A DNA stretch of 63,118 bases, from positions 1 to 63,118 of IMG/VR virus record IMGVR_UViG_3300010042_000001. One strand, given 5' to 3'. The position numbers were made by a program, and so were the translations under genes. A model generated the notes under the pieces. That model saw nothing but the letters and a program-made list of their open reading frames with translations, was not told where the DNA came from and ran no database searches. Below are positions 3,391 through 24,659 of this stretch, piece by piece. Every line of letters starts with the position of its first letter. Within the stretch, counting starts at the first letter, position 1. This stretch comes from a virus (Duplodnaviria; Caudoviricetes).

Positions 3391-3425
3391 CAACACATCG
3401 CAACAGACAAACAGGAGCTGACACC

Positions 3426-3584: not shown

Positions 3585-3594
3585 GGGGCGAGTA

Positions 3595-3813: not shown

Positions 3814-3826
3814 GCAGGAATAAACC

Positions 3827-4021: not shown

Positions 4022-4049
4022 TCCCTCTATTCTCGATAGGAGCTGAACC

Positions 4050-4695: not shown

Positions 4696-4765
4696 CCACT
4701 GATAGGCGTAGAACCCTGCGCCTATTGTTGGGAATTTTCCCTAGTTGAAACGAATGGAGTTGATT

Positions 4766-5083
4766 ATGAAAATTGTTCTTGAACGCCACCGCTTCGCCCC
4801 GGAATTGAACAAAGCCTATGTTGGCCCATCGCGTGTTTGCGTGCCTGCACCCGGTTGCACAACTATCCGCGCCGTGCGCGAAAAACTGTTTGCCCCGTTG
4901 AAATATCGCGGTCGATTTGTGACTCTCCGGGCGGAAAATACGCCGGGTAATAGGGGTTGCAACGAAACCCGCACCGGTTTTTGCAACAATATTCGCTCCC
5001 TGTCTGGCGCATTGGTGCTTTTCCGCAATCGCCACAATCTGCCCGGTTGCGTGCATACCGTTAACACTCGATTGATTGGGTAA
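4766..5083 (+). CDS. Early hypothetical protein
   Basis: GGAG RBS before MKIVLERH. Confidence 0.7.
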   Translation: MKIVLERHRFAPELNKAYVGPSRVCVPAPGCTTIRAVREKLFAPLKYRGRFVTLRAENTPGNRGCNETRTGFCNNIRSLSGALVLFRNRHNLPGCVHTVNTRLIG

Positions 5084-5086
5084 GCT

Positions 5087-5197
5087 GTGGCCCACCAACA
5101 AACCATTAGCCGCCGTGTTTTCTATGCCCTTGGGGGCCTTGAAAATCCTGCACTGTATCGCAAGGGCAACCGCTTTTATATTCGAGGTGTGGCATGA
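5087..5197 (+). CDS. 36-aa early protein (below the ORF-track cutoff)
   Basis: GTG start, MAHQQTISRRVFYALGG..., ATGA overlap with the next gene. Confidence 0.55.
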   Translation: MAHQQTISRRVFYALGGLENPALYRKGNRFYIRGVA

Positions 5198-5604
5198 AAA
5201 AGACCGATTTTGAGTGGCAACAAGAATGCAAGTTTATCGATTCGTTGGTTGATAAAAAAGGCGTGGTTCCGAATATGAACAACGACACACCTACTTTCAT
5301 TCGCTATTGCGAAATGCAACGTGATGCTGCGGGGCGTGACGGCCAATTTGATGCATCGACGTCAATTCAGCACGTTATCGACGATATGCAAGACTACGCG
5401 CAATCGGTCGATACCGGCTATCTGCACCATGGCAAAGGAACAGCGGGCCCGTTTCGCACTGAATCGGTGAAACTCCGGCACGAAGCGCCTGACAATTGGT
5501 TTGCCCGATTTGAAGGCAAATGGCGCAAGGTTAACGTACAGGTAAATCGTACGTTTATCGTGTTCCAAGGCGAAAAGATCGATATTCAAATTTGGGGAGT
5601 CTGA
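5194..5604 (+). CDS. Early hypothetical protein
   Basis: GAGGTG RBS; 136 aa. Confidence 0.7.
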   Translation: MKKTDFEWQQECKFIDSLVDKKGVVPNMNNDTPTFIRYCEMQRDAAGRDGQFDASTSIQHVIDDMQDYAQSVDTGYLHHGKGTAGPFRTESVKLRHEAPDNWFARFEGKWRKVNVQVNRTFIVFQGEKIDIQIWGV

Positions 5605-5606
5605 AA

Positions 5607-5945
5607 ATGGACCGTTTCGCAATTTGCCAAGCGTACGCACAACTTGAGTCTGATTACAACGTTGGCGGTATTCTACGGGAACGCCCTAGTAACCAAAGGC
5701 GCAGAGAATCTATCGGTTGCCAGTTGTCACGCATGAGCTTTTCAAACCCGCATGGTTGGATCGATATCGAGGCGGAACTAGATGAAAACGCTGATCACAG
5801 CGACGACGATATACGCGAAGTTTACATGCGTGCCGTACTGCGTTGGAATTTGCCAATCGATGCGGGTTTGTTGTCGGCCATGCGCCGTTTCTTTGCACCT
5901 GAATTTCTGGCAAAGTATCCGCAAACACAAGGTGTGTCGGCATGA
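5607..5945 (+). CDS. Early hypothetical protein
   Basis: GGGGAG RBS before MDRFAIC. Confidence 0.7.
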   Translation: MDRFAICQAYAQLESDYNVGGILRERPSNQRRRESIGCQLSRMSFSNPHGWIDIEAELDENADHSDDDIREVYMRAVLRWNLPIDAGLLSAMRRFFAPEFLAKYPQTQGVSA

Positions 5946-6133
5946 ACTACCGTCACCCAACATCAAAGCGCCGTGCTGTGGTTTATCACGTGTACGGGAC
6001 TAAATCGGCCCATGGGGTCCAATTTTTCAATTACCGCCAGCGCGTGCCCTACTTGGATTCGACATACGCAAGCAAAGCGGATGCGCTGGGCCATCTTGCT
6101 GCACTGGGTTATTCAATCGAGGGGAAAGCATGA
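5942..6133 (+). CDS. Early hypothetical protein
   Basis: ATGA overlaps at both ends. Confidence 0.65.
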   Translation: MNYRHPTSKRRAVVYHVYGTKSAHGVQFFNYRQRVPYLDSTYASKADALGHLAALGYSIEGKA

Positions 6134-6273
6134 GAAAAGAATTCATCAAGTGCGCCAGTCGCACCACTGCGCGGCGCCGTGCTCCTTGGGCTGCGGCCAC
6201 TATCCAATGCGAAGACGGTTTTATGGTTTTCGAATGCGTCAACGAGGCGCGAATTTTCAGGGGGCAGAAATGA
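6130..6273 (+). CDS. 47-aa early protein
   Basis: MRKEFIKC...RRRAPWAA..; GAGGGG RBS; ATGA overlaps at both ends. Confidence 0.65.
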   Translation: MRKEFIKCASRTTARRRAPWAAATIQCEDGFMVFECVNEARIFRGQK

Positions 6274-6638
6274 ACGCCGAAATCCATCCTATCGGTTCTA
6301 TCGTCCTGTCCGTTGCGGGTGAGCAGGATTGCGACGAACAAGACAACGAACGCAGCACGGGCCCGCGCGCATGGGGTTACATAGAGGATCATTTCCCGGA
6401 ATCCGGTTATTCGGTCGTTTTCCGTTTTGGTGTCGCGGTATTTATCACCCATGCGGAACTGGCCGATAGCCGCGCCTACGCGGTTGTTACCCCCGCTGTA
6501 ATGGCTGGCCGGTTGCGCGATATGCAATCCATCGAAAATGAAATTTGGGAAAAGGAGCGTTGCCCCACGGGCGACGATTACAACGATGTTGCCGGGATTT
6601 TTGGCGTCAATCCGGTAACTAGGGGAGTGCCAGCGTGA
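6270..6638 (+). CDS. Early acidic hypothetical protein
   Basis: MNAEIHP start by ATGA overlap. Confidence 0.7.
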   Translation: MNAEIHPIGSIVLSVAGEQDCDEQDNERSTGPRAWGYIEDHFPESGYSVVFRFGVAVFITHAELADSRAYAVVTPAVMAGRLRDMQSIENEIWEKERCPTGDDYNDVAGIFGVNPVTRGVPA

Positions 6639-6847
6639 GAAAAGCCGACTATGCAACCCTTGCCCAATTGATTCAGCAAGAACACGCCCACGCGCGTAAG
6701 TGTGTCGCCGAATCGTGGCGCCCACCTGAAACCCTTGCAAATTTCGAGGGTCAATCTCATGCGCTGGAATGGCTTGCAAAAGAATTCGCAAAATCGGCCA
6801 GCGTCAACCCTGCCGAATTCCTGAAAGCCTGCGGAATCGATCCGTAA
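6635..6847 (+). CDS. Early hypothetical protein
   Basis: GTGA overlap; GGGGAG RBS; ends FLKACG. Confidence 0.7.
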   Translation: MRKADYATLAQLIQQEHAHARKCVAESWRPPETLANFEGQSHALEWLAKEFAKSASVNPAEFLKACGIDP

Positions 6848-6890
6848 AACCGTTTTCGCCACGTGCCACCGGCCGCACGATAAAAAGCCG

Positions 6891-6946
6891 AAAAGCCTAG
6901 GGGCTGCAAACCATCTTCACCGGTGGAATGCAGCCCCTAGGCTTTT
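6891..6946. terminator. 18-bp perfect inverted repeat; probable terminator or processing site
   Basis: AAAAGCCTAGGGGCTGCA ... TGCAGCCCCTAGGCTTTT with A and T tails. Confidence 0.7.
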
Positions 6947-6978
6947 TGCGTTTCCGATACACAAAGGAGGTCCACACC

Positions 6979-7275
6979 ATGCCCCGCTATGTCCTGTTTC
7001 CCGGCCCCGTGCGCAGCGCCTACGATGGCCAATCGCACAACGTCAACCCGGCAATGCTGCGCTTTCTGTACCGCGTGCCTATCGATGCGCCTTGGATCGA
7101 TGCATGCCGGCCACTGGGGCCGGGGCAAGCCCCCTATGTGCCGCATCCCGACGATATCGAATGCAGGCCGCGTGCGGATGGCCTGTACCCGCGAATGAGC
7201 ATCCACAGTGCGCAGCCTGCACAGGGTTTCGAGCGTTTCCGGGCGGCCTATCAAGGGGTGCACCATGGCCGATAA
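6979..7275 (+). CDS. Hypothetical protein
   Basis: AAGGAGG RBS before MPRYVLFPG. Confidence 0.75.
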   Translation: MPRYVLFPGPVRSAYDGQSHNVNPAMLRFLYRVPIDAPWIDACRPLGPGQAPYVPHPDDIECRPRADGLYPRMSIHSAQPAQGFERFRAAYQGVHHGR

Positions 7276-7528
7276 CCTGCCCCGCTTGCGCCGCGTTCAG
7301 GTGCATTGCAATCCGCCACTAGTCGGGCTCCATGCGGGCGCCTACCACGTGGTGTACAGCTACTGGGTGTGGGAGTGCATCACCACTGGGCCCGATGCGC
7401 AGCCATGGCAACGCGGCAGGGCCCAGACGCCAGAAAAAGCCTACCGGGTACTGCAAAAGAAACTGGCGATGGCTGCGCGGCAGGACGAACGGGCGCAGCG
7501 CCGTGCACGAGCTGGCCTTGAAAGCTAA
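7265..7528 (+). CDS. Hypothetical protein
   Basis: AAGGGG RBS before MADNLPR. Confidence 0.6.
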   Translation: MADNLPRLRRVQVHCNPPLVGLHAGAYHVVYSYWVWECITTGPDAQPWQRGRAQTPEKAYRVLQKKLAMAARQDERAQRRARAGLES

Positions 7529-7757
7529 TCCACCGATTGAGCGGAGCGCCACATTTTCGGCGGATGAAAAAACAGGGGCCTGGATTTTGGGAGCACCTGC
7601 GCCTGGTGCATAAAATTTACAGGTCCGTAAAAACGTCACGCACACCAAACGCGAATTCGCGCTCTGGCTGTGAAAAGACCCCGTGGGGTGGGAGGGGGCG
7701 CCCATCCAAAAATGAAATCGGCTGGCCCTGCCGACCCCACCCCCGCCCATCCGATTT

Positions 7758-8363
7758 TCAATTCCTGGGGCCTACTTGGTCCCAGCACCAGGCAGGCAGG
7801 CTGCTGCCGGCCGGCGCGGCGGCCACGGGGAGCGGCTGCGGGAACTTCTGGTCTCCCATGTGGTGCTCTGCGACGAATGCGATCCGACCCACCCAAAAGC
7901 TCAGATCCTCGGGCTCCGAATACTTCGGCAGGTGACCGCAGCGAACCAGTGGAACCCACAAACCAAAGCGAGCCTTCACGATGGCCTTGCACAGCGCCTC
8001 GGGCTGGTTGCGGCCGGTGGCCGTGGCCTCGGACAGCCGGAACTCCGGCCTGTTCACCGCGAGCTGCACACGAACGGCCCAGCGTGTGCCGTTACCACCA
8101 ACCGCCTCGACCAACTCGCATTGCTCGATCAGGTGTTGGAACCAGCGGCCTGGTCGAGACGGGCGATACCACTCCCACATCCGGCCTTCGCCTTCGGTGG
8201 TCTCTTCGTCGCAATAGTTCTCCGGGTCCCACTCGTGCTCGAAGGCCGGTTGACCGGTGATGGGGCGCAGCACCAGCCGACCTGAGCCGGGTATCGCGAC
8301 CGCTGCAGCCACCCAGAAATCCAGGGTTGGGCCGGCAAGAATACCATCTACGTAGACTTTCAC
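7758..8363 (-). CDS. NinX/DUF2591-like protein
   Basis: N-terminal LAGPTLDFWVA..V and later PS..W.....E and A.CKAIV..RFG motifs. Confidence 0.55.
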   Translation of the reverse strand: MKVYVDGILAGPTLDFWVAAAVAIPGSGRLVLRPITGQPAFEHEWDPENYCDEETTEGEGRMWEWYRPSRPGRWFQHLIEQCELVEAVGGNGTRWAVRVQLAVNRPEFRLSEATATGRNQPEALCKAIVKARFGLWVPLVRCGHLPKYSEPEDLSFWVGRIAFVAEHHMGDQKFPQPLPVAAAPAGSSLPAWCWDQVGPRN

Positions 8364-8452
8364 GTTACATTCTCCGTTTTCAATAGGGGTTCAAGAAGGC
8401 CCCTGTCTTCGTTCAAGCTACCACCCCACTACCTTCGCCACAGACCCACCTT

Positions 8453-8932
8453 CTACCCCTGCGGTAATTCGTCTGGGACGGCATCCTCCACCAGAATGGA
8501 CCCCCCATTTTTGTGGGGCGTTTTTTCGGGGAGTTTTGGCCTACCCCTTTTTGTGGGGGCAATTGGTGGGATCAATCCGGCCACCTCCAATTCCCGGCAG
8601 ATTTGCTGGACCCGTCTTTCGCTCATGCGAACGTGGACCGAAATGTGCTGGGTGGGGAGGCCGGCCTGCAGCAGCTCGCCGATTTGCTGGCGCTGCGTCC
8701 AGACCTCGTACTGCTGCAGCCGAGGAATACTCAGGTGCTTCCCTCCCCATTCCTGGGTGAGCTTTTTCGCGGACGATTCGCCCAGTAGCGCGACCAGGTG
8801 GTGGCCGTCCTTGACCGTCTTCGGGATGTAGCACTTGTGGAGGTCGCCGTACCACGCGGCCAACCGGATCGTTGCGGAGAAGCCAATGAGGGCCGAAATG
8901 TCGTCGAGCGTTGTGTTCTTTAGCGTCATCAT
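8453..8932 (-). CDS. Mor/C-like transcriptional activator (HTH), probable late regulator
   Basis: IG..AT..L...YG...YIP and LG...A..L...WGG..L.IP repeats, plus C-terminal HTH ...SERRVQQI. Confidence 0.7.
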   Translation of the reverse strand: MMTLKNTTLDDISALIGFSATIRLAAWYGDLHKCYIPKTVKDGHHLVALLGESSAKKLTQEWGGKHLSIPRLQQYEVWTQRQQIGELLQAGLPTQHISVHVRMSERRVQQICRELEVAGLIPPIAPTKRGRPKLPEKTPHKNGGSILVEDAVPDELPQG

Positions 8933-8959
8933 CTTTCCTTTGTTAGTCTTAGCGTTCCA

Positions 8960-9052
8960 GACGCATTCGACGCATTTGGGGCACTTTTCCTAAACTCTTT
9001 CTATGCATACAGGGAACAATAGTAAAAGTGGGTCAAATGCGTCGAATGCGTC
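8960..9052. repeat. Long inverted repeat with internal tandem repeats; candidate replication origin
   Basis: GACGCATTCGACGCATTTG at 8960-8978 and its exact reverse complement at 9034-9052, directly downstream of primase. Confidence 0.6.
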
Positions 9053-9063
9053 GAAAACTAACG

Positions 9064-11652
9064 CTAAACATCATCGAAATCGTCAGGTGTAACGCTACGC
9101 AGGGCAATTCCCCTCCGACACCGCACATCCTTCGCGTCCTTCATCGCCGGAAAACGCTGCTCCAATTTCCGACCAAGAGCCGTGCTCGACTTCACAAAAT
9201 GGAGGTTTCCACGGTTTTTTGCGAACAATTCCCAGCTCGCCCACAGGTCCACGGAGGGCGTCAACGCTGACTGATCCGTTACCACACAGCATTCGTCCAG
9301 CCACTCGGCCAGCAGATCCATCTGACCACGGTAAGCCTCGCGAGCCTCCTTGATCGCCGGAGGCGGGGCCAGGCCCTCCTTCTGGTATTTCAGTCCGGCA
9401 CGGACGAACCTGGCCAGGATGCCCGGCATTTCTGCACGCAGCTTTTCCACCCGTTTCTCGTCCTTGGCCACGGTCTTGTCGGCCTCAAAGTTGCGCTCGA
9501 AGGGCAGCAGCACCAGGCGGCGCCAGATACCGTTGTCGGTGCCGCGCACGATGGGCTTGTGGTTCGTTGGCATGAACACCGTCCAGGTCGGGATGATCTC
9601 CAGGGACTTTTTGGCATGCACGCCGCGCGCCGTGATGGCATCACCACCCGTCATGCTTTTAATCGCCCCTTCGCGCAGCTCGCCGTTTTCGTCCGGCTCG
9701 TTCACATACACGAACCGCGCGCCACGCAGCCTGACCAGATCCTCGCGGGGCCCGCCGGCATTACCGCCAATGGCATCGCGCACAAAGCTGCCGGCCTCCG
9801 CGCTCTTGGCATAGGCGCCGAAGACCTCGCGCGCTACACCGTAAAGCGTTGACTTGCCATTGCTCCCATTGCCAAACGGGATGATCAGCACGTCGGCAGT
9901 CGGGTTGCCTTGCAGAGCGTAGCCCAGCGTGCGCAGAAAGAAATTCGCCATGGGCCCGTCGCCGAAAAAGCAGTCGAGCACAGTGCTGTCGAACACAGGG
10001 CACTTCGCCAGGGGGTCGTACTCGCAACCGGCCACCATGGTGATCCGCAGCTCGGGGTCGGGATCGAGCAGTGCGCCGGACCGCAGATCCACAATGCCGT
10101 TCTTCACGCCGAGCAGATAGCTGTGCTTGTCCAGCTCGCGCGCCGGAGTGGCGACCCGTGGATCGCTACACGCCAGCTTGATCATGTTGCTCACCATCTT
10201 CGCCTGTTGGCTGATCGAGCAGAATAAGAAGAACTCGCTCGGGTCGTCGTGATCGGCGGCCTCGGCCGGCAGGTTGCGCACCGTCTCCTTTGCCAGGTGC
10301 TCGATCTCTACGTCTACGGCGGGCCGCCAGTACACCCCAGTCCACATGTACCAACTGCCCTCTTCGGGCACATACATCAGGCCGTCGCCGTAGCGGTCCA
10401 GCATGCGCTCCGCGTTCCCGAACTCGGTAAGCGGGCGGCGCGACTGGACAGTGCTTTGCCGGCGGCCCAGCACCAGCTCGCGCGCCTGGCCAATGGGCAG
10501 GTTGTGGCCAGTCAGGGCCTTGTACCGCTCCTGGAAAAGGGTGACCGCGTTGGAGCGCAAGAGCTGGTCGTCCGGCAACAAGCTGCGCAGGTGCTCCAGG
10601 AACTTCGTTCCCCCGAGGGTGGGGAGGTCTGCTACCTCGGCGATGGCCGCTTTGATGGCGTCCACGCTCTCCAGCTTGTGGGCGTGCTCGGCGTCGCGCT
10701 TCTCCTGGCCAGCGATCTTGATCAGCCAGCGCAGCGTGGTGCTCGCGCCGGAGTACCGGCCGAACGACTCCCATTTGTAGTCGTACTGGTTGGGCTTGTC
10801 CTTGTCGCTGCGCGCCCCATAGTCGCGCCACAAGTCCAGCGCGTCGTCTTCGTGCTCGGTGCCCGCGAACTCGTGGTGGAGGGCCGCGCCGACCTGGACC
10901 CACGTGTCGTAGGAATCACCGTCGTTGGCCATGTGCGCCATCAGCTCGCGCACGTCCTCAATCGACATGTCCGTCTTGTTGGAGAGCAGGGCCAGGTCGT
11001 CCACCTCGCCGACCACGGCCAGCGCAGTGCCCGACTTGCCGACGATCTCCACGCCACTCGTGCCGCGCGCCAGACGGGCTACCTCCGCGAGCAAGGCGTT
11101 CACCTGGTCCTCGGTGATCTCGGGCAGATCGGCGGCCGGCATGTTGACCATGCCATCCATGAGATCGACCCACTCGTAGTCGTTGCCCGTGTCGGGATGC
11201 TGATGGTAGGCCACGAACTGCTGCCCGAGGCCCAGGATCTCCACCTGCTGCTCGTTCTTTTTGCCTGATGGTTTCAGTGGGTCGGTCGGATCGTAGAACT
11301 GCACGCTGGCGCCCTTGGCCCAGCCGCTCGACGCAGCACGGTACACCAGCATTACGCGCGGCGCGGCCCCCACCCGTTGGATCGTGCTGCCCAGGTGCTG
11401 CTCGCACCAGTCGATGACCTTGGGGCCGATGGTGGGGTGGCTGATATCGACGTCCACGCCGACGATGGGCCACTGCCCTTGGCCACACAGCACACCCACT
11501 CCGTGGTCCCGCCACTGGGTGAGGTCGTGGGCCGTGAGGCGGGCATTTTGCCAGCCCTTTATCTGGGGGAATTTCTTGCCGCGTGGTAGCGGCAGGACGA
11601 GATAACCGTTGTCAATGAGTTGCTTGCCATAGGTCTTGAGGTGGTCGGTCAT
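9064..11652 (-). CDS. Primase-helicase (Prim-Pol + PriCT-2 + D5/P4-family SF3 helicase)
   Basis: 862 aa; DVD prim-pol motif, YDTWVQVGAALHHE, Walker A GNGSNGKST, TNHKP...D.GIWRR. Confidence 0.92.
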   Translation of the reverse strand: MTDHLKTYGKQLIDNGYLVLPLPRGKKFPQIKGWQNARLTAHDLTQWRDHGVGVLCGQGQWPIVGVDVDISHPTIGPKVIDWCEQHLGSTIQRVGAAPRVMLVYRAASSGWAKGASVQFYDPTDPLKPSGKKNEQQVEILGLGQQFVAYHQHPDTGNDYEWVDLMDGMVNMPAADLPEITEDQVNALLAEVARLARGTSGVEIVGKSGTALAVVGEVDDLALLSNKTDMSIEDVRELMAHMANDGDSYDTWVQVGAALHHEFAGTEHEDDALDLWRDYGARSDKDKPNQYDYKWESFGRYSGASTTLRWLIKIAGQEKRDAEHAHKLESVDAIKAAIAEVADLPTLGGTKFLEHLRSLLPDDQLLRSNAVTLFQERYKALTGHNLPIGQARELVLGRRQSTVQSRRPLTEFGNAERMLDRYGDGLMYVPEEGSWYMWTGVYWRPAVDVEIEHLAKETVRNLPAEAADHDDPSEFFLFCSISQQAKMVSNMIKLACSDPRVATPARELDKHSYLLGVKNGIVDLRSGALLDPDPELRITMVAGCEYDPLAKCPVFDSTVLDCFFGDGPMANFFLRTLGYALQGNPTADVLIIPFGNGSNGKSTLYGVAREVFGAYAKSAEAGSFVRDAIGGNAGGPREDLVRLRGARFVYVNEPDENGELREGAIKSMTGGDAITARGVHAKKSLEIIPTWTVFMPTNHKPIVRGTDNGIWRRLVLLPFERNFEADKTVAKDEKRVEKLRAEMPGILARFVRAGLKYQKEGLAPPPAIKEAREAYRGQMDLLAEWLDECCVVTDQSALTPSVDLWASWELFAKNRGNLHFVKSSTALGRKLEQRFPAMKDAKDVRCRRGIALRSVTPDDFDDV

Positions 11653-11670
11653 TCGTTGCTCGGTATCGTT

Positions 11671-11889
11671 CTATCGCAAGGCCGCCGGGTCGTGGCCACA
11701 GTAATCGGAGGGAGCTGGATTCTCGTCGAAGTCCACGCCCATCGCGCCGCACCAGGGGCACCGTGTCGGTTCGGACTCGTCCATTTCGGCCTGTCGTGCG
11801 GCCACGTCGTGCCGTGGGCCAACCGGGTCGCGCGAGGGGAAACGCTGCTCGAATCTCAGGGCTCGGGTTAGGTGAATCAGCTTGATCAT
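11671..11889 (-). CDS. Small Cys/His protein
   Basis: ATGA overlap; CPWC...CGH. Confidence 0.55.
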   Translation of the reverse strand: MIKLIHLTRALRFEQRFPSRDPVGPRHDVAARQAEMDESEPTRCPWCGAMGVDFDENPAPSDYCGHDPAALR

Positions 11890-12224
11890 GCTTCGTCCCC
11901 CGGCCGCCGGTCGTGCGCCCTCGCCAGATAGCCCTCTCGCAGCTTGGCGTGCAGGCCCACCGGCCACCACTGCACGAAGCCCCGCGACTTCTCGGCCGGT
12001 ATACGCACCGCAAGCCCCAGGTCCACCAGCTCCTGCAGCCGCTGACGGGCCAGGGCGTTCGCGCAGAACAGCGGCACGTGCCAGGTTCGCACGCCGTACC
12101 GCACACAGGCTTGCGTGTCATCGGCCAATGCGACCAGAGTGGCCAGGTTCTCGGTGCCACCGGAGAACTGCATGAGGCAAGCGCTGGTGAGCTTGTGCAG
12201 GTTGAGTTTTTGACGGTCGTTCAT
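11886..12224 (-). CDS. Hypothetical protein (possible winged helix)
   Basis: ATGA-coupled MNDRQKL...; RQRLQELVDLGL. Confidence 0.6.
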   Translation of the reverse strand: MNDRQKLNLHKLTSACLMQFSGGTENLATLVALADDTQACVRYGVRTWHVPLFCANALARQRLQELVDLGLAVRIPAEKSRGFVQWWPVGLHAKLREGYLARAHDRRPGDEA

Positions 12225-12373
12225 ACGTAGGGCCCCGCAGCGATAAGTGCGACCGCCCACGCGAAGAGGAACAGACTGCCCAACGGCGAGCGGTCGGAGA
12301 GGTGCGCGGCCATGAGCAGCAGGCCGGCGGCCCACAGGGCTAGGAGAATGTTGATCCAGTCGGTTGCGGTCAT
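12221..12373 (-). CDS. Small two-TM membrane protein
   Basis: Two hydrophobic stretches; ATGA overlaps. Confidence 0.6.
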   Translation of the reverse strand: MTATDWINILLALWAAGLLLMAAHLSDRSPLGSLFLFAWAVALIAAGPYV

Positions 12374-12522
12374 TTGGCTTGCTCCATCAGAAACAGAATC
12401 AACAGTACGCTCGCCGCGCCACATACTTTCGGCCATGGGCCTCTGTTTTTAGGGTCGATCAGGTCAAGCCAGCCAACCATAAAAAGCACCCAGGCGAGGC
12501 ACCACAACAGAGCGGTGCTCAC
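12370..12522 (-). CDS. Small two-TM membrane protein (50 aa, not in the track)
   Basis: GTG start MSTALLWCLAWVLF...; overlaps both neighbours. Confidence 0.55.
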   Translation of the reverse strand: MSTALLWCLAWVLFMVGWLDLIDPKNRGPWPKVCGAASVLLILFLMEQAK

Positions 12523-12773
12523 GCCGGACCCCCAATCTGCGGGGGCACCACAAACGCCACACCCTCCTGCTGGTGGATCTGCTCGGCCAGGCGGTCCTCC
12601 ACGAACTGCGATTCGGTAAAGGTCATCTGCTCAGTGGCCCCGTGGCACCACACGGTGATGGTGCGCGTTGCCGCTATCCAATCGCACCGGACTTCGATGG
12701 CGTCCACATGCTCGTTGCACACGGCGCAGCGGATGCGCAACAGGGGCTCGTTGGGGGCGAGGTTGAACATCAT
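12519..12773 (-). CDS. Hypothetical protein (CxxC)
   Basis: Operon packing; GGAG RBS. Confidence 0.6.
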   Translation of the reverse strand: MMFNLAPNEPLLRIRCAVCNEHVDAIEVRCDWIAATRTITVWCHGATEQMTFTESQFVEDRLAEQIHQQEGVAFVVPPQIGGPA

Positions 12774-13027
12774 GCCGGCTCTCCGAACCGCGCCACAACC
12801 TTCGCCCACGAACTGCGCTTACAGTCCACGAACCAGCGCACCTGGCCGACCTGTTGTGGGCCATCGAGCGTGTTGCGCGTCACCCAGTTGCCCTCGGCCT
12901 GCACCGTGATGCCGTTGATCACTCGCGTGACCGTCACACCAAACACCATACGCACGCCGCTGCTCGGCAGCTCCAGCGCCTTGATCCGCATGTTGCGCAG
13001 CTCACCCGTCGCTTTCATTTTCGCCAT
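12770..13027 (-). CDS. Hypothetical protein
   Basis: GGAGG RBS before MAKMKAT. Confidence 0.65.
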   Translation of the reverse strand: MAKMKATGELRNMRIKALELPSSGVRMVFGVTVTRVINGITVQAEGNWVTRNTLDGPQQVGQVRWFVDCKRSSWAKVVARFGEPA

Positions 13028-13158
13028 ACATCCTCCAACCATGCGGTTTCGATTTCAACCTGTCGGCAGATCCACAGCCACAGGGCCTTGGTAAGCAGGC
13101 ACGCCAGCACCAGGATGGCCAGGAGCAGCGCGGTGAAGATCAGCAGGTGCTCGATCAT
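13015..13158 (-). CDS. Small single-TM protein
   Basis: MIEHLLIFTALLLAILVLACLL; GAGG RBS. Confidence 0.55.
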   Translation of the reverse strand: MIEHLLIFTALLLAILVLACLLTKALWLWICRQVEIETAWLEDVWRK

Positions 13159-13481
13159 CGTTCGTAACCTCGTGGGCCGGGGTCGGTCCACATGTCCCGC
13201 TCGGCTGACCGCACGTGGCCTTCGGGCTTTGGCAGAGGCTGCACATCCACACCCAGCGCCACCGGCGGCATCGTCTGGCCAACGACCGACAGTTGCACTG
13301 CATGGCCAGCGTTCAGTGCAGCCAGTTCCTCGGGTGTCGGCACCCAGTAGCTGACCACCGCCGGCACGCCGTCCCACAGTACACGGGTGACGGGCAGCGC
13401 GTCGCAAGGCAGCTTGCTCTGGTCCCAGCCGGCCGGAGCGCCGAGCATCAGGTTTGTCGTTGGGTGTTTGGTGTGGTTCAT
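13155..13481 (-). CDS. Hypothetical phage protein
   Basis: AAGGA RBS; LGAPAGWD...S.W.PT.EELAALNAG...PP motif. Confidence 0.7.
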   Translation of the reverse strand: MNHTKHPTTNLMLGAPAGWDQSKLPCDALPVTRVLWDGVPAVVSYWVPTPEELAALNAGHAVQLSVVGQTMPPVALGVDVQPLPKPEGHVRSAERDMWTDPGPRGYER

Positions 13482-13483
13482 AG

Positions 13484-13795
13484 CTATCCTTTCGGCACCC
13501 GCTCCACCACAGTGATGCAGCGAACGAGGTTGGGTTGAATACGGTACATGTGCAGGGCCTCGGCCTCTGTGGCGGGCCGCCATGCGTACTGGACGCGCGT
13601 GCGCTGCTGCCACTCGACCTCTACCGGCACCTGGGCCGTGCGCAGATGGGCCAGGGGTGCGCCTGGCTTCGTGGCGTCCTCCAGGCCGGCAATGGCCGCG
13701 TCGAAAACGGCGTTGTCGTCGGTCAGGTACTTGTTCCTTCGGAACCCGCACATGAACATGGCCAGCAGGCCACGGGTGTGTTCCCAGGAGGTCAT
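13484..13795 (-). CDS. Hypothetical protein
   Basis: ATGA-coupled start MTSWEHT. Confidence 0.6.
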   Translation of the reverse strand: MTSWEHTRGLLAMFMCGFRRNKYLTDDNAVFDAAIAGLEDATKPGAPLAHLRTAQVPVEVEWQQRTRVQYAWRPATEAEALHMYRIQPNLVRCITVVERVPKG

Positions 13796-14100
13796 GGCCG
13801 AAACCCCCGGCGCTCGTGCTTCCACTGCGCCTCGCGCCGCTTGGGCGCTGGTGGCACGATGGCAAAGAATTCCTCGGCCCGCAACCGGCCCTTGTCCATT
13901 GCGGCGCACATGGCCAACATCGCAGCGGTGCTGATGCCGAGACCATCCACCACGAGGGTCATGTCCCGGCCGCCGCCGATGATGCGCGCGCCGGCCTGCA
14001 GCGGCTGGGCCAACGTCACGGTGAGGCCCTTAACATCCAGCACCTCGGACAAGTTGCCATCGGCGTCGATCAGGACGACGGTTCCGTGGTTGCTGCTCAT
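13792..14100 (-). CDS. Hypothetical protein
   Basis: ATGA overlaps. Confidence 0.6.
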   Translation of the reverse strand: MSSNHGTVVLIDADGNLSEVLDVKGLTVTLAQPLQAGARIIGGGRDMTLVVDGLGISTAAMLAMCAAMDKGRLRAEEFFAIVPPAPKRREAQWKHERRGFRP

Positions 14101-14411
14101 GGCAATTCCCCAGTCGCGACGAAGTGCTGCAGCGCCGGCAGCAGCTCGGCCACCTGCTGACGCGACAGATGCATGCGGGTGGTCAAGAACACGGCGTCGG
14201 GGATAGGGTACGGCACCCAGCCCACGGTCTCTGCCGTCTGCACGCCGTGCTGCGCCGCCTGCGAGGCCAGGATCTGTGGATCAGCGCTGGTCACCCCGAG
14301 CCATACCTTGTTTTCCGTTGCTGCGCTGCTCTTTTGCAGGCTGCAACCGGCACCGTTGGCGTCCTTGAACGTGAACAGCCGGAAACCTCGGGCGGTAGTT
14401 GTGCGGTTCAT
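14097..14411 (-). CDS. Hypothetical phage protein
   Basis: T.RGF....F.D..G..CSLQKSS.AT...WLG...TRMHL motif. Confidence 0.75.
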   Translation of the reverse strand: MNRTTTARGFRLFTFKDANGAGCSLQKSSAATENKVWLGVTSADPQILASQAAQHGVQTAETVGWVPYPIPDAVFLTTRMHLSRQQVAELLPALQHFVATGELP

Positions 14412-14656
14412 GGCTTCGCATCCCCATTGAACTTACCGCCGTTCCTGAGCCGGCCACGTGCCGCTTGTACCAGGTCAGCCGCGAACAACAGCGCCTCGTC
14501 CGGCGTCATTTCCATGCGCAGGGCGCCCACGTCGTTGATCGTGCGCTTGTCGAGGAACAACACGGAGATACCTGGGTCTCCGACCATGCGGACATGGGGC
14601 TGCTGGGTCTCGACCACCTGGGCCGATTTGAGGTTGAAATTCTTTTCGACTTGCAT
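14408..14656 (-). CDS. Hypothetical protein
   Basis: AAGGA RBS; ATGA overlap. Confidence 0.65.
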   Translation of the reverse strand: MQVEKNFNLKSAQVVETQQPHVRMVGDPGISVLFLDKRTINDVGALRMEMTPDEALLFAADLVQAARGRLRNGGKFNGDAKP

Positions 14657-14659
14657 GAG

Positions 14660-15163
14660 TCAGTCCTTGCAGTTTTCGGGCAGGCTGCTGAATGCAACCT
14701 TAAATGGGATCACCTTGGCATCCGCTGGCAGGCCCGTCTTGGGGTCGATGGGAATGGGCACAGCAGTCCAGCCCTCACCCCATCCGTCAACCGGCTTGAA
14801 ATAGGGGGCGCCCGTGAGTGGGTTGATCGGTGGGATACCGGCCTCTTCGTACTCACGCAGCTCGGCTAGGCGCTCGACAACACCTTGTACCAGGCTCTTG
14901 CCACGAACGTTCTGGTGGCGGCCGGTAGGTGTCGAGACGAGCACGGTACGCGCAGCAGGGAACGGTGTCGCACGCGCGCCGACTGATTTCATGCGCTCGA
15001 TCATTTCTTTCTGATACTGCTTCGGCTCCCAGTTGATGACGCCTGCCGTCGAGCCAGTGCCCAATGCTGCCAATTGCAGCAAGGCCGAGGTCGGTGCGTC
15101 GTAGGTCTCCAGGTCGAACCCGATGGTTCGGCGCTTCTGCAAGCGACGTTGATGTGCGTTCAT
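14660..15163 (-). CDS. Hypothetical protein
   Basis: GGAG RBS before MNAHQRR. Confidence 0.65.
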   Translation of the reverse strand: MNAHQRRLQKRRTIGFDLETYDAPTSALLQLAALGTGSTAGVINWEPKQYQKEMIERMKSVGARATPFPAARTVLVSTPTGRHQNVRGKSLVQGVVERLAELREYEEAGIPPINPLTGAPYFKPVDGWGEGWTAVPIPIDPKTGLPADAKVIPFKVAFSSLPENCKD

Positions 15164-15381
15164 AGCAGCTCGCTCCAGTCCTTGGCTTCCCACGCAGTCA
15201 TGCCCCGGCAAGCGCTGCACAGGCCGTCATAGGACGAGCCGTACCCCTGGCCACAGCCCTTGCACACCTGCTGGCCAGGATTGCGACGGCTGTACACGGG
15301 GCGGCGGTTGGCTACAGAGACCGCGTTGGCTCGGTTGCCTGCGCGGCCACGGCGGTTACCGGATTGGTTGTTGCGGCTCAT
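15160..15381 (-). CDS. Basic Zn-finger-like protein
   Basis: Arg/Asn-rich N-terminus; CKGC...CSAC. Confidence 0.6.
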   Translation of the reverse strand: MSRNNQSGNRRGRAGNRANAVSVANRRPVYSRRNPGQQVCKGCGQGYGSSYDGLCSACRGMTAWEAKDWSELL

Positions 15382-15385
15382 GGCA

Positions 15386-15700
15386 TCACCGTGGTTCGGG
15401 TGGTGGAACAGCGGTCGGGTGAACGGACTTGTGCGCTTCGAGCTTTTTGCGCATGCGTTCAACGCGATAGCCGGCGGCCACGTAGCGGTCACGTGCTTTC
15501 TCGTACTTGGTTTGTAGCGCGTCTACGCCTTCCCGCCAAGTCTGAAACAACTCGTCCTCGCGGCGGTAGAACCCGGCTTCGTCGCGCAGGGTGCCGTACG
15601 ACGAGTTGATTTCTACGATGGATATCAACCGGACATTACCGGCGCTGGTGAGCAACCATGCGCGGCAGGGTAGCTGATTTTGTTTGAGGTTATTGAACAA
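15386..15700 (-). CDS. Hypothetical protein downstream of the structured RNA leader
   Basis: TTG start with AGGAAAGG RBS. Confidence 0.6.
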   Translation of the reverse strand: MFNNLKQNQLPCRAWLLTSAGNVRLISIVEINSSYGTLRDEAGFYRREDELFQTWREGVDALQTKYEKARDRYVAAGYRVERMRKKLEAHKSVHPTAVPPPEPR

Positions 15701-15721
15701 GGCTGGCGACCTTTCCTGATC

Positions 15722-15804
15722 GCCGCGTGGTGGAGGCCCGAGAGTGGTGCGCCAGCGTTACCCCATCAATGCAGAAAGGGGCTCTCGGACCCCCGCCACG
15801 CGGC
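15722..15804 (-). ncRNA. C4/CI-like antisense RNA (83 nt)
   Basis: Stems GCCGCGTGG/CCACGCGGC, CCGAGAG/CTCTCGG and CCCC/GGGG; loops complementary to upstream and downstream sites. Confidence 0.65.
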
Positions 15805-15841
15805 TCTGCAGACGTGATGGTTTAGGGATGCTGGCGAGGTC

Positions 15842-15869
15842 AGTATATCGCAATCGCTAAAAAAGTCAC
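15842..15869 (-). promoter_or_regulatory. Sigma70 promoter with operator motif in the spacer
   Basis: GTGACT-N16-TATACT; the spacer contains TTTAGCGATTGCGA. Confidence 0.7.
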
Positions 15870-15883
15870 GCTCGTTTACAACT

Positions 15884-16027
15884 TCAAAACGGTAACTCGG
15901 GGTCGAACAGACGGCCCCACCGGCGCATGGCCCACGCGCGACGCAAGGCCACCCGAGTCGGCCGCCGCATGAGCCGAGACCGGATGACCAGCACCAGGGG
16001 CTTGTGGGGTCTCTTGCGGCAGCGCAC
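15884..16027 (-). CDS. 47-aa Arg-rich protein (tentative)
   Basis: GTG start 1 nt after the upstream stop; ends FDPELPF. Confidence 0.4.
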   Translation of the reverse strand: MRCRKRPHKPLVLVIRSRLMRRPTRVALRRAWAMRRWGRLFDPELPF

Positions 16028-16028
16028 C

Positions 16029-16250
16029 CTAGTTCATCTTCGCCGCGCGCTGCGATGGCAGCTCGACACGCAGCATGCGTTGCACGCCATCCAGAATGAA
16101 CCGGATGGTTTCCTCCCTGTTGGCGCCTTGCCGCACCATGCCCTCCAGGGTGATGCGATGGCCGATGGACAGGGCGCCAACCACGTCTGCGCTCTCCGTG
16201 CCGTCTGGAACAAGGGTGAGCATCTGTTTTGCCAAATCTCCGGGTGTCAT
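16029..16250 (-). CDS. Hypothetical protein
   Basis: AAGGA RBS; ATGA overlap. Confidence 0.6.
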   Translation of the reverse strand: MTPGDLAKQMLTLVPDGTESADVVGALSIGHRITLEGMVRQGANREETIRFILDGVQRMLRVELPSQRAAKMN

Positions 16251-16543
16251 ACCGTTTTCCTTTGCTGTTTAAATTCGTACTCTGCAATCGCCAGCTTGAC
16301 CTTGGCCACATCCACGGCCGAGACCAGACTGCTGCTCGGGCACGGTTCACCGGTCAGATAGAACCGCTTCCACGAGCCGGTGTAGAAACCCACCTCGCCG
16401 CACATGGTGCAGCGGAAAGTCCCGGTAACGAAATCCTCCTGGGCCGATTTCGTGCGCTGCACCCACTCAAGCTCGGTATCGCCCCACGGGGTGACCTCGA
16501 CCTCTTCGTAGCCGGCGGGGTAAGTCTCGTGGGGGCACGTCAT
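16247..16543 (-). CDS. Hypothetical protein (CxxC)
   Basis: ATGA overlaps. Confidence 0.65.
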   Translation of the reverse strand: MTCPHETYPAGYEEVEVTPWGDTELEWVQRTKSAQEDFVTGTFRCTMCGEVGFYTGSWKRFYLTGEPCPSSSLVSAVDVAKVKLAIAEYEFKQQRKTV

Positions 16544-16950
16544 CGTGCCTTTTCCTGGCTCAGTGCCGCAGCGCGTTCCGCTACCTCGGCCAGCGCCTCC
16601 TTGCGCCCAGCCTCTCGGCCGCTCGCTTCCCAGCGGGCGTACCGCGCGTTCAACTCGTCCTTGTTGACCACCACAGGATCACGCAGAGCGAAGGCTTGTT
16701 TGGCGACCTCTTCCCGGCGGATGATGGGTCCGAGGTCGCGCTGGATGGTGTCAAACAGCGACTCGATGCCGGCGGCGTGGGGCTGCAAGAACGACTTGCC
16801 CATCAGCTTGTAGAAGGCTTCGAGGAACGGCTGGGTGCCGTACTCCGTGAGCACGTGCAGGGCGCGGATCTCGACGCCGGTCAGCTCGATGGTCACGCTG
16901 CTGTTGACCTGTGCTTGCGAGCGCAGGCGGGTCTTTCGTTCGGCGGTCAT
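16540..16950 (-). CDS. Hypothetical protein
   Basis: GGAGGA RBS; ATGA overlaps. Confidence 0.7.
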   Translation of the reverse strand: MTAERKTRLRSQAQVNSSVTIELTGVEIRALHVLTEYGTQPFLEAFYKLMGKSFLQPHAAGIESLFDTIQRDLGPIIRREEVAKQAFALRDPVVVNKDELNARYARWEASGREAGRKEALAEVAERAAALSQEKAR

Positions 16951-17402
16951 TGGGGTTCCTCCGGCAGCTCTGCGCCGCTCTGGGCGACGTTGATGTAGCC
17001 CTGCAGCCAGGTCTCCTTGTGTCCCGCCTTGTGCAGCTCCTGGCGGGCCTTGAGCAGGCCGGCGAGCACAAGGCCCCAGTTGCCCCGGTTGATCTGCTCA
17101 GGCCCGGCATGCGCCCAGTCCGCGAGGCAGGTGATCGGCACGTCCGGCTGGGCGCCGAGGGACAGGAGCACGTAGTTGTCCTCCACCACAGACACCACAT
17201 TGAGTGCGTCCAACGTGTGCAGTCCGATGATCGTCCGCACGACCTCCAGGCCCGTGTGTCGGTTGGTCGTTTGGTCCCACTCCATCAGCCGCAGCAGATC
17301 GCCCACCTGGTAGTTGCGGTCGTTCTTGCGCAGCTCCCAGGTCTTGGTGCCGGCGATCACCTCGCGGAAATACGCGGGCCAGATTTTCAGTTCGTGGATC
17401 AT
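16947..17402 (-). CDS. DUF3850/ASCH (PUA-like) domain protein
   Basis: MIHELKIWPAYF..V..G.KTWELRKNDRNYQVGD.L.L.EW signature. Confidence 0.85.
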   Translation of the reverse strand: MIHELKIWPAYFREVIAGTKTWELRKNDRNYQVGDLLRLMEWDQTTNRHTGLEVVRTIIGLHTLDALNVVSVVEDNYVLLSLGAQPDVPITCLADWAHAGPEQINRGNWGLVLAGLLKARQELHKAGHKETWLQGYINVAQSGAELPEEPQ

Positions 17403-17854
17403 TGGGGTTCCTGCGGTGGGTTGGGTGCGGCGCAAGGCATGATGTGGGTGACCTCTCCCGCGTCGATGTACTGACCGGTGACGGACTGAAAGCAAGGCAG
17501 GCGGTCTGGCCAGCAGTAGACCTCTGGGATGTAGAAACCGATACGCGGCACCACAAACCCCAGTCCGAACATCCAGTACCTGGTATCGCGCGCGTCGATG
17601 TACTCCTTGGCCAGGCGCTCCACAACCTGTGGCGTCACCGTTTCCCACACCTCCGGCGGCCTCCAACCCAGCTTCTGCAGCGCCTCCCGCACGGCCTGGT
17701 CTTCGAGCGATACCAGCGTCTCTCGGTACTCGCGCACCTTGTCGTTGACCTTCTGCTGCAGAGTCACGACCACCTGGCCATCGACCACCGGGCCCACGGT
17801 GGTGTCGGCATGGAGCACAACGCCTTTTTGCAGGGGGTGATAGAAGTCCATCAC
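17399..17854 (-). CDS. Hypothetical protein
   Basis: Overlapping stop/start at both ends. Confidence 0.65.
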   Translation of the reverse strand: MMDFYHPLQKGVVLHADTTVGPVVDGQVVVTLQQKVNDKVREYRETLVSLEDQAVREALQKLGWRPPEVWETVTPQVVERLAKEYIDARDTRYWMFGLGFVVPRIGFYIPEVYCWPDRLPCFQSVTGQYIDAGEVTHIMPCAAPNPPQEPQ

Positions 17855-21674: not shown

Positions 21675-21880
21675 GGAAAGTATTTTCGCATACGCTAAAA
21701 AACTTTGCAACGCTAAAAATCGTTTTCTTCGCTCTCGCGCTGCACATACCCCATGTTGAACCCCACCCATGCCGCCTCGAATTGATGCACGCCATAGGCG
21801 CCAGACGGATCTCGCCAGAAGAGAGCGGCCATGGTGGGGTCGCCTTCTGCACCTGGTTGCTGCCACCCTTGATCCTTGAG

Positions 21881-23263: not shown

Positions 23264-23799
23264 TCGGTCCTTTTCCCTTGCCTCGCTGCGGTGGTGTTGA
23301 ACTCGTCGTTGGTGATCTTGCCACTGGCCAAGCCCATCAGTAAATTGCGCCCATTCTCGGCACCTTCCGAATAGGCGTGGTCCATACCCTTGGCTATGGC
23401 CGTGAACAGGTCCGCGAACTTCTTGGCCAGGAGCGGGTCCATGTGCCGGTAGGTCGCCCAACTGCTCTCTCGCTGTCCAGGCCACAGGTCTTTCACCTCG
23501 CTGCCGGGGTAGCCAAGCACCGGCGTGCTGACCGCGTTGGACAGAACGAGCAGCGCACCTCGGATCGTTTTGGTCTCGTCCTTTTCACGCGGTTCGTGCA
23601 TCAGGTATGGCAGGGCATACGCGACCTCGCGAGCGCGCACGACACCGGTGCCCCGCTCCGCAGCAGCCTTGCGTTCCTTGGCCATCTTCTGCGCCTCACT
23701 CAGCGCCGCCTGGCAGTCCTGGCACAGCCCATCCTTGGGCCGGCCGAACGTGCTTCCGCACCCATGGCACGGGGCCTTGGTGTAGCCGGCCCGTGTCAT
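23260..23799 (-). CDS. Hypothetical protein with N-terminal Zn finger
   Basis: CHGC...CQDC. Confidence 0.7.
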   Translation of the reverse strand: MTRAGYTKAPCHGCGSTFGRPKDGLCQDCQAALSEAQKMAKERKAAAERGTGVVRAREVAYALPYLMHEPREKDETKTIRGALLVLSNAVSTPVLGYPGSEVKDLWPGQRESSWATYRHMDPLLAKKFADLFTAIAKGMDHAYSEGAENGRNLLMGLASGKITNDEFNTTAARQGKRTE

Positions 23800-24659
23800 T
23801 GCGCCACGTCATTGAGCAACAACGCCTGTGCCAGGCTGCGCAGATCCGTGTGCTCGCCCAGCCCCTCGGGGAACACCAGGGTGGTCTCGCCCAGCATGCC
23901 CTCGTCCAGCTTGCAGTGCAGCACCATCACGCGGAACAAGGTGGCGTCCTCTTCGAGCTTCGCGAGCGCGGCTTTCTTTGCCGCCTTCTGGTCTTGCTGC
24001 AGCACGCCGGCCGTGACCTTGCCTTTTGGCGCCGTCTTGAGCGCGGCCTTGACCACCTGGCCGGCTTTCTCGCCATGCTTTTTCACCACCTTGACCGCCT
24101 CGGTGGCCGTGATCTTTTTGTCCTTGACCAGCTTTTTCAAGTCGCTGTTGGCGTCGCCCAGCTTCATGAGGTTGCGGATCTGCGGCGCCTTGATATCGGC
24201 AGCGACGGCGATCTGCTCAGGCGACCAGCCGAAGGCACGCAGGCGCTTGTAGCCCTCGGCCACCTCCAGCGGGTCGAGCGGCTTGCCCTTGGCGCTGGTG
24301 AGGATGCGCAAGGTGCGGTCGGCGTCACTGCCCTCGAAAGGGACGACGTGAATCCAGTTCTTGCCGTCCTTGGGGTTGGTGATCGGTGCGCCTTCCGACA
24401 GGGCCAGGAGCAGCGCACGGCGACGACGGTGGCCATCCACCACGAACACACCGCCCTCGTCCCGTGGCCGCACCTCCAGCGCCGGGTACTTGCCGCCGCG
24501 CTTGATGTGGTCGGCCAGGTCGCGGATCGAGGCGTCCAGGTCTTCACCTTCGGCCCGCAGGTTGAACCCTGGTTCCTCGTGGATGTTCTCCAGTTCGACC
24601 TGGTTCGCATCGGCGCGCTTGACCACGCCAGCGGCTTGCATTTGCTTGAAAGATGCCAT
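23796..24659 (-). CDS. ParB/Srx-like domain protein
   Basis: EEPGFNLR, VVDGHRRRRA, then HTH (GWSPEQIA). Confidence 0.85.
   Translation of the reverse strand: MASFKQMQAAGVVKRADANQVELENIHEEPGFNLRAEGEDLDASIRDLADHIKRGGKYPALEVRPRDEGGVFVVDGHRRRRALLLALSEGAPITNPKDGKNWIHVVPFEGSDADRTLRILTSAKGKPLDPLEVAEGYKRLRAFGWSPEQIAVAADIKAPQIRNLMKLGDANSDLKKLVKDKKITATEAVKVVKKHGEKAGQVVKAALKTAPKGKVTAGVLQQDQKAAKKAALAKLEEDATLFRVMVLHCKLDEGMLGETTLVFPEGLGEHTDLRSLAQALLLNDVAQ

Follow-up and report, generated by a model that had tools for sequence, protein, structure and literature searches.

With its 63,118 bases, the window analysed here constitutes a complete virus record in IMG/VR (IMGVR_UViG_3300010042_000001; Duplodnaviria, Caudoviricetes); its G+C content is 61.5%, and unless stated otherwise all positions are positions within it. 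Between a promoter and the first gene of a long gene run on its minus strand lies a short element that is a conserved structured RNA of that strand and, judged by its sequence, represents an RNA family absent from Rfam 15. The reading that we prefer, and hold to be rather probable, is that the element is a cis-encoded antisense RNA of C4/CI-like design that would act in trans as a translational repressor of an early replication operon. RNAs of the C4/CI type are a textbook case of phage self-regulation by an antisense RNA carried in the transcript of its own targets, and they have so far been linked to immunity in temperate elements such as P1, P7, P4, and N15, where they control an antirepressor or the replication operon of a prophage. 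A preliminary description of this DNA had proposed a self-contained switch of this kind in a phage without an integrase.

All pairing partners of the element fit in 145 nucleotides (nt) of one transcript. The promoter (GTGACT, 16 nt, TATACT; 15842..15869) heads the RNA and the early operon and is the only sigma-70-like site in 14500-17000, where shuffled sequences yield 0.6 such sites on average. Its GCGATATACT is kept in five of seven aligned sequences, with GCGTTATACT in L021 and GCGATATAAA in L018, two related contigs described below. The leader holds two targets, b1 (CGCCAGC; 15830..15836) and a1 (CCATCA-cgtc-TGCAGA; 15805..15820, with CCATCA at 15820-15815 and TGCAGA at 15810-15805). Since b1 starts 5-6 nt after the -10 hexamer, the distance being 5-7 nt across the 13 sequences whose hexamer can be recognised, it lies at or beside the predicted 5' end of the transcript. 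In the 83-nt structured core (GCCGCGUGG...CCACGCGGC; 15722..15804), a basal helix of 23 bp, interrupted by one C.A mismatch, is combined with an inner hairpin and a junction strand. Its loop carries the recognition element a' (TCTGCATTGATGG, that is TCTGCA-T-TGATGG; 15763..15775), the complement of a1, and its junction strand carries b' (GCTGGCG; 15750..15756), the complement of b1 and of a downstream target, b2 (CGCCAGC; 15702..15708). The b2 target occupies the 9-nt spacer between the Shine-Dalgarno sequence (SD) AGGAAAGG (15710..15717) and the TTG start codon (15698-15700) of ORF1, an open reading frame (ORF) of 104 amino acids (15386..15700) that is the first gene behind the RNA. The promoter leading into a complementary leader, the 83-nt hairpin at 15804-15722 whose unpaired part is antiparallel to that leader, and the second CGCCAGC between SD and TTG had all been placed by the preliminary description, and its coordinates for them proved exact.

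Relatives of the element were sought by exact-motif scans and by searches for loci with a related primase gene, and every candidate locus was accepted or rejected by a covariance model, R1. Forward-strand matches of 62-149 bits were obtained for 17 records with 14 distinct sequences; on the reverse strand the scores were 23-27 bits. The members are the window itself, Acidovorax phage ACF1, the IMG/VR contigs L004, L005, L006/L007, L018, L021/L146, and L122, an identical copy in the assemblies L025-L028, a Giesbergeria metagenome-assembled genome (MAG), L029, and the metagenome contigs L103, L105 (partial), L109, and L110. Two other loci, L120 (28.1 bits) and L123 (26.5 bits), are regarded as tentative because such scores belong to the reverse-strand range of the true members. 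The carriers are a small group of betaproteobacterial phages from soil and water, one cultured member of which infects Acidovorax citrulli.

The fold is far more stable than expected from composition, with a minimum free energy of -55.3 kcal/mol for the hairpin as compared with -34.2 +/- 3.3 kcal/mol for shuffled sequences (z -6.46; 0 of 200 shuffles as stable). In a helix alignment of 13 distinct sequences, 98.5% of 472 cells hold standard pairs versus 36-48% when the partners are slid, 12 of the 37 helix pairs are changed on both sides, and not one of 500 shuffles reaches any of the five measures used. Although this alignment was fitted to the covariance model, an independent MAFFT/RNAalifold analysis of six sequences returned the same helices with 10 compensatory pairs out of 37. 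G.U pairs are conserved at alignment positions 51-119 (11 of 13 sequences), 53-117 (8 of 13), and 69-80 (12 of 13). The many conserved G.U pairs, together with the strand asymmetry of the model scores, point to a minus-strand RNA rather than an inverted repeat acting at the level of DNA.

Coordinated change extends from the helices to the proposed recognition elements. In most members b' is GGCUGGCG; it reads GCUGGC in 12 of 15 sequences and GUUGGC in the other 3 (L021, L120, and L123), all of which have GCCAAC as the upstream target. In L021, where b' is GGUUGGCG and both b1 and b2 are GCCAAC, three sites have been altered together (C to U, G to A, and G to A). An exact 6-mer complement of b' is found upstream in 14 of the 15 sequences, L103 having a G.U variant, and b2 stands beside the start codon in 13. 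Taken together, the upstream pairings fill 95.7% of 187 cells versus 31-44% with slid partners, and two pairs are changed on both sides, a result that 0 of 500 shuffles reach. For the loop, pair 34-75 of a1/a' changes from G-C to A-U in L021, and pair 37-72 is G.U in 11 sequences, A-U in one, and G-C in one, with another A-U in L122; the occurrence of the latter pair in all three forms fits RNA pairing and not a repeated DNA motif. In the window itself loop and leader have diverged jointly, with TCTGCA/TGATGG facing CCATCA/TGCAGA where the consensus has UUUUGCGG facing CCGCAGAG.

These observations also bear on the idea that the GCCAGC repeats are protein-binding sites such as an operator or iterons, and that the inverted repeat is a cruciform or an origin near the primase gene. 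Such DNA-level signals would suit the three 6-7-mer copies within 135 bp, two direct and one inverted, that change together in L021, and also the primase gene found downstream of the element in every locus with context. The conserved G.U pairs, however, would be C.A mismatches on the opposite strand, the scores collapse when the strand is reversed, a1 and the complement of a' differ at the G.U position in 11 of 13 sequences, and the third copy is locked to the spacer between SD and start codon. We therefore consider an explanation at the level of DNA very improbable.

The downstream target is part of a strikingly constant cassette. The block GAAAGGTCGCCAGCCTTG, which comprises the SD, b2, and the start codon, shows no change in 11 of the 13 aligned sequences, one change in L021, and several in L018, and the GAAAGG of the SD is present in all 13. 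L018 has ATG at the position of the start codon; in L122, which is outside the alignment, an ATG comes one base later. Of nine loci compared, four (the window, ACF1, L025, and L029) share a homologous ORF behind the block, and five (L004, L005, L007, L021, and L018) have an unrelated one; L122 has a homologue too. Because homologues of ORF1, which has no family match in PHROGs/Pfam-type profile scans, are conserved from residue 1, TTG is supported as the start codon. The junction stays fixed exactly at the start codon although different genes follow it, which argues for counting the ribosome site as part of the RNA module. Joined in this way to genes that can be swapped, the cassette offers a natural instance of a portable module for translational control. 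The preliminary description had placed targets both upstream and downstream of the RNA; this holds for both elements upstream and for the junction element downstream, but not for a downstream loop target. A candidate for the latter, termed a2, lying over the SD as GCAGAA in the consensus and CAGGAA in the window, could pair with the 5' portion of the loop but was rejected, the registers being different and L021 and L018 not following.

How far chance could account for the complementarity was assessed within the genome. CGCCAGC is a common word in the window, with 25 copies on the plus and 20 on the minus strand, and a 7-mer complement occurs in the upstream flank alone in 7.75% and in the downstream flank alone in 4.8% of draws of random flanks from the same genome; an identical complement in both flanks was drawn only 9 times in 20,000. 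The leader duplex (-27.8 kcal/mol) is matched by 3 of 1000 shuffles. Other results weigh against an antisense RNA with two sets of targets. The ribosome-site duplex (-19.3 kcal/mol) is matched by 102 of 1000 shuffles, and among 20,988 windows across the genome ranked by duplex energy, the best one in the leader takes rank 1525 and the best one at the ribosome site rank 4134. The covariation statistics for b2 are equalled by 45 of 500 shuffles and reflect a single lineage, L021, and the tentative relatives L120 and L123, whose 26.5-28.1 bits are no better than reverse-strand scores, keep b1 and b' with no b2. The 5-6-bp candidates for a downstream loop target are inconsistent across members. 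In addition, b' can itself fold into a 3-bp hairpin that exposes UGGC, with only one-sided changes in the alignment, and may thus be partly locked. A matrix of cognate and non-cognate leader duplexes is diagonal for L021 only, although this matrix is uninformative because the G/C-rich leaders pair with the GGGG stem of any member. Since the chance tests are mixed, unconstrained duplex energies being unexceptional, the weight of the evidence lies in conservation and covariation among the relatives.

The remaining points on the same side concern kinship with known RNAs. A covariance search with C4-type models, which the preliminary description had named as a check, was run with Rfam 15 (clan CL00128; the gathering threshold of RF01695 is 45 bits) and gave no match at the element. 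No C4-clan model matched the window at gathering or, in 15400-16200, at an expectation value (E) of up to 10, and none matched the element in the loci of six relatives at E<=5, yet the controls were recovered at 74.9 bits for P4 CI and 68.8 bits for P1 C4. The c4-a1b1 model (RF03163) found nothing in the window and gave 51 bits for its P1 control; a weak match in L018 (7099-7143 of that contig, minus strand; 18.5 bits, E 4) was discarded, because it lies on the opposite strand at a distance of 1.2 kb from the element. The isrK model had no match at the element either, so that even at E<=10 none of the three, Rfam C4, c4-a1b1, or isrK, marks it, and R1 in turn found nothing at C4 or CI in P1 and P4. 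As the Rfam models miss the element yet find their controls, it is C4/CI-like in architecture and not a demonstrable member of the family. What stands of the likeness asserted at the outset is the layout, with a long basal helix and targets on both sides; what does not stand is recognisable membership of Rfam C4. The literature searches made brought up no description of the element.

The likeness is closest to C4 of P1 and P7. In the P1 record the order is promoter, a1, b1, the 77-nt C4, a2, and b2 just before icd. In C4 and in the element alike, the RNA has its own promoter immediately before it and shares a transcript with its targets, a long basal helix is combined with a recognition element in a hairpin loop and another in a single-stranded 3' junction, these two elements following each other in the same order in the P1 sequence as in the window, the upstream complements are ordered 5'-junction target...loop target-3', and the downstream target covers the ribosome site of the first ORF. 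The ends are also alike: P1 C4 has GGUGGGG at the 5' end and CCUGCCACC at the 3' end, the element family has GG(U/C)GGGG and CUCCACC, and the Rfam consensus is uGGcgGg...cCcgCCaCC. These similar end motifs are a lead for distant homology with C4, nothing more. On the other hand, the element lacks the 5' tetraloop hairpin of C4, in whose Rfam consensus the basal helix encloses two hairpins, and has an extra 9-bp lower helix with covariation. Its upstream targets abut the RNA, whereas those of P1 C4 are 70-90 nt away, and its downstream target is the junction target alone, between SD and start codon, where P1 has the loop target b2 10-18 nt before the start. The genes behind the RNA differ as well (ORF1 and the primase/Mor operon described below, as against icd-ant in P1), and the window has no C1-type repressor (no HTH_3 or S24 match), unlike P1 and P7. 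Rho-dependent polarity operates in P1. RNAs of this type are processed to a stable species of ~70-80 nt, with RNase P acting at the 5' end and a CCA-like tail at the 3' end. PMC8198154 deals with C4, icd, and ant; a section of PMC2190699 has C4 as an RNase P substrate, and the c4 antisense RNA and c4-a1b1 appear among Proteobacteria and phages in a part of PMC2864571.

With regard to gene order, P4 offers the nearer parallel. The CI RNA of P4 is the immunity factor of that phage, which is not known to use a protein repressor for it; the RNA has complementary sites, seqA and seqC, on both sides of the RNA and acts by premature termination of transcription, whereas the target in the window is in a ribosome site. 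CI (8420-8507 of P4) likewise heads an operon in which a few small ORFs come before the gene for a primase-helicase, alpha (4636-6969, same strand); in the window the RNA is at 15.8 kb and the primase gene at 11.65 kb. P4 CI matches Rfam C4 and the window RNA does not; P4 has an integrase and the window none; and only the helicase half is common to alpha and the window primase, at 22% identity over 278 amino acids (pairwise E 6e-6). For N15, the title of a 1999 paper by Ravin et al., cited in PMC4488713, names a small processed RNA (CA) in the anti-immunity operon that controls the genes downstream; by that title, CA would resemble the proposed RNA in acting on its own operon. PMC4488713, which concerns immA of N15, presents this temperate phage as a linear-plasmid prophage whose repressor is CB and whose operon encodes icd and antirepressor functions, none of which was found in the window.

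On our preferred reading of a trans-acting translational repressor, which draws on the arrangement of the sequence, the RNA would be made from its own promoter, forming the initial ~145 nt of the transcript of the early replication operon, and we infer that the hairpin would then be released or processed from that transcript. Its b' (GCUGGCG) would pair with b2 in the spacer between SD and TTG and block ribosome binding at a weak start codon, and polarity would then lower expression of the co-oriented genes behind, including those for the primase-helicase and the Mor-like activator. The stronger set of leader sites, with b1 at the 5' end and a1 abutting the helix, should serve as a decoy or second target for RNA from earlier transcripts. 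The outcome would be dosage-dependent negative feedback on the early operon, or homo-immunity. In the SD/start region (15698-15717 and its counterparts in relatives), a 5-bp hairpin AAGGU/GCCUU with CGCCAG in its loop is possible; since this hairpin and that of b' would both present their elements in loops, pairing may start as a loop-loop kiss. The stems of both small hairpins hardly vary, and the alignment is neutral on either.

The same parts could also make up a leader that acts purely in cis, in which b1 and b2 compete for b', or in which a transient a1:a'/b1:b' fold alternates with the hairpin, so as to set the translation of ORF1 or the stability of the messenger, with nothing released. 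The short span of the partners, the position of b1 at the predicted 5' end in both subfamilies, which suits sequestration of that end, and the retention of b1 and b' in L120 and L123, where b2 is missing, are all as such a leader would have them. Yet the hairpin, at -55 kcal/mol, dwarfs the alternatives, the leader duplex included, and a stable switch is therefore unlikely. Moreover, a1 abuts the base of the 23-bp helix and a' lies at its far end, so that pairing of the two in cis with the helix intact appears sterically implausible, which favours either pairing in trans or a transient co-transcriptional fold and, with it, a released RNA acting in trans. The precedents in P1 (the P1 record and the passage in PMC8198154), P4, and N15 (by title only) act in trans after processing. 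All in all, we regard a leader confined to cis action as unlikely, though a serious competitor.

Alternatively, the RNA could act on transcription or processing, as a put-like processive antiterminator, as an RNase III or RNase P site, or as a terminator-inducing RNA of the P4 type. Its place right after the promoter, ahead of ~7 kb of co-oriented genes down to the Mor-like gene and with terminase genes beyond, would be apt for such a function; terminator-like sites in 2300-15800 are no commoner than in shuffles (16 vs 14.3 +/- 4.6), and P4 CI itself provides the example of termination. A conserved ACC(A) on the 3' strand after an 11-bp helix segment further resembles RNase P substrates, a feature of C4 as well; ACC follows the helix in 13 of 13 sequences, 11 of which have ACCA, yet these bases are paired within the lower helix. 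The hairpin, however, has no U-tract on its 3' side, no antiterminator or ribozyme family of Rfam matches it, and an action on transcription or processing would leave unexplained why a complement of b' is kept exactly between SD and start codon while the ORF is swapped. Such an action seems to us improbable.

The translational repressor that we favour would head a run of co-oriented genes extending along the minus strand from ~27.5 kb down to 0.25 kb. Four kb downstream of the RNA lies the primase-helicase gene (9064..11652; family matches Prim-Pol, PriCT-2, and D5_N), directly followed by a gene for a Mor-family late transcription activator (8453..8932; phrog_836, 1.3e-16; PF08765 Mor, 26.4 bits vs a cut-off of 24.9), and further on, in the same run, are the small (2429-2908) and large (255-2429) terminase subunit genes, assigned by family matches. 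The preliminary statement that the downstream operon runs to a primase and a late activator is thereby borne out.

So is the absence of an integrase. Six-frame searches of the whole record, with working controls, gave no match to tyrosine recombinases (PF00589), serine recombinases (PF00239), or the rve transposase family (PF00665), none to ParB_N (PF02195) or the ParA-type ATPases AAA_31 (PF13614) and CbiA (PF01656), and none to the S24 peptidase (PF00717) or HTH_3 (PF01381) families; a PHROGs scan of 30 ORFs of the window gave no antirepressor family. By sequence comparison, then, the window phage has no recognisable lysogeny genes among the families searched. The PF00589 domain is present in ACF1 and unmatched in three complete relatives, four relatives having full-length records, and a section of PMC8851203 reports an integrase homologue in ACF1 and raises pseudolysogeny. 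There is a lone ParB-like protein (23796-24659, minus strand; phrog_1033, 2e-64; Pfam HTH_ParB, 6e-8) that lacks both a ParA partner and a match to ParB_N. It may act in partition, as a nuclease, or as a regulator, and could be relevant to a carrier state of plasmid type.

A bolder view of the element is that it either descends very distantly from the C4/CI design or has reinvented it independently, and that it would be all that phages devoid of integrase, protein repressor, and partition ATPase have for immunity or shut-off; we put this forward as a tentative and rather doubtful suggestion. RNA accumulated from a first genome would pair with leader and ribosome site and throttle primase and Mor, giving either a self-timed switch from early to late expression or an RNA-only carrier state with immunity to superinfection, and the specificity of that immunity would depend on the loop sequence, which has diverged in the window and in L021. 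The timer or carrier-state switch proposed earlier on the basis of its architecture would be a possible role of the element. If the element works as the repressor that we favour, the C4/CI design would be more widespread and divergent than databases suggest, and the cultured ACF1 would be a test system for how a phage with no repressor limits or times its early genes. The C4/CI logic is met here in a lineage beyond the curated models, where most carriers show no lysogeny genes and the RNA heads a replication and late-activator operon.

The distribution of the element is narrow. When 15000-16400 of the window was compared by blastn with 50,697 GenBank phage records, ACF1 was the single record matched, and the match was limited to query positions 541-706, that is 15860-15695 of the window, the element itself; in ACF1 this stretch lies between genes, ahead of three small ORFs and the primase gene, all of which run in its direction. 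The element was not found in other GenBank phages or in PLSDB plasmids. Of 18 loci with a related primase gene, three (L007, L018, and L021; primase 58-63% identical) have the element, and the other 15, BPP-1-like contigs included, have none by R1. Among 151 genomes of the family of the Giesbergeria MAG, R1 under stricter filters matched that MAG and was negative for the other 150.

Several candidates from the motif scans were discarded. The pattern TTTGCGGC..GGCTGGCG..CACC, whose second gap was too long, produced 72 loci that were all chance; none of them matched the model, which among 78 sources matched only L025-L029. Pattern matches in L030, L104, L106, and L107 were rejected for lack of a match to the model, and L108 (34.6 bits) proved on inspection to be a false positive in a coding region. 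Of 25 new loci obtained with GAAAGGTCGCCNNCCTTG, 24 were chance and the single model match was the L021 contig again. The copies in L025, L026, L027, and L028, with the same score of 139.6 bits, are on phage-like contigs filed under four unrelated assemblies, namely Clostridia, Aeriscardovia, and Eggerthellaceae MAGs from ruminant guts and a Vreelandella isolate, which suggests a mis-binned or contaminating phage and not four hosts. In the tentative relative L120, a 10-codon mini-ORF follows the RNA at 248-279 and its stop codon overlaps the primase start (ATGA), an arrangement suggesting that translation of the primase is coupled to that of a leader peptide.

Other features of the window lie outside the element. 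A gene 1.1 kb upstream of the RNA (16947-17666, minus strand) encodes an ASCH/DUF3850 (PUA-like) protein, which PHROGs labels an RNA-binding protein; with such a domain it is not an obvious chaperone of the RNA. The first 123 bases of the record recur at its end as a direct terminal repeat (1-123 and 62996-63118). A tRNA-Pro(UGG) gene (62987-63063, minus strand) is mostly inside this repeat and for that reason appears at each end of the record. A promoter-like TTGACG-16-TATATT with a TTTAGCG box closely precedes it, at ~234-260 on the minus strand.

The latter box belongs to a motif, TTTAGCGnnTGCGAw, that has nine matches in the window with up to three mismatches, where 0.27 would be expected. 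The copies, on both strands, are at 234-249, 2907-2922, 6943-6958, 15847-15862, 21685-21700, 27581-27596, 27613-27628, 31277-31292, and 38881-38896, all in promoter-like contexts on either strand. Those at 27.58-27.63 kb form an inverted pair in a divergent control region, and two identical 24-nt copies are inside TTGACA/TTGCGT-17-TAAACT promoters of plus-strand structural genes. The copy at 15847..15862 (minus strand; TTTTAGCGATTGCGAT) lies within the spacer of the promoter of the RNA, where L122 has a perfect palindrome, TTTAGCGATCGCTAAA. From its placement, the motif may be the operator of a phage regulator that also controls the promoter of the RNA.

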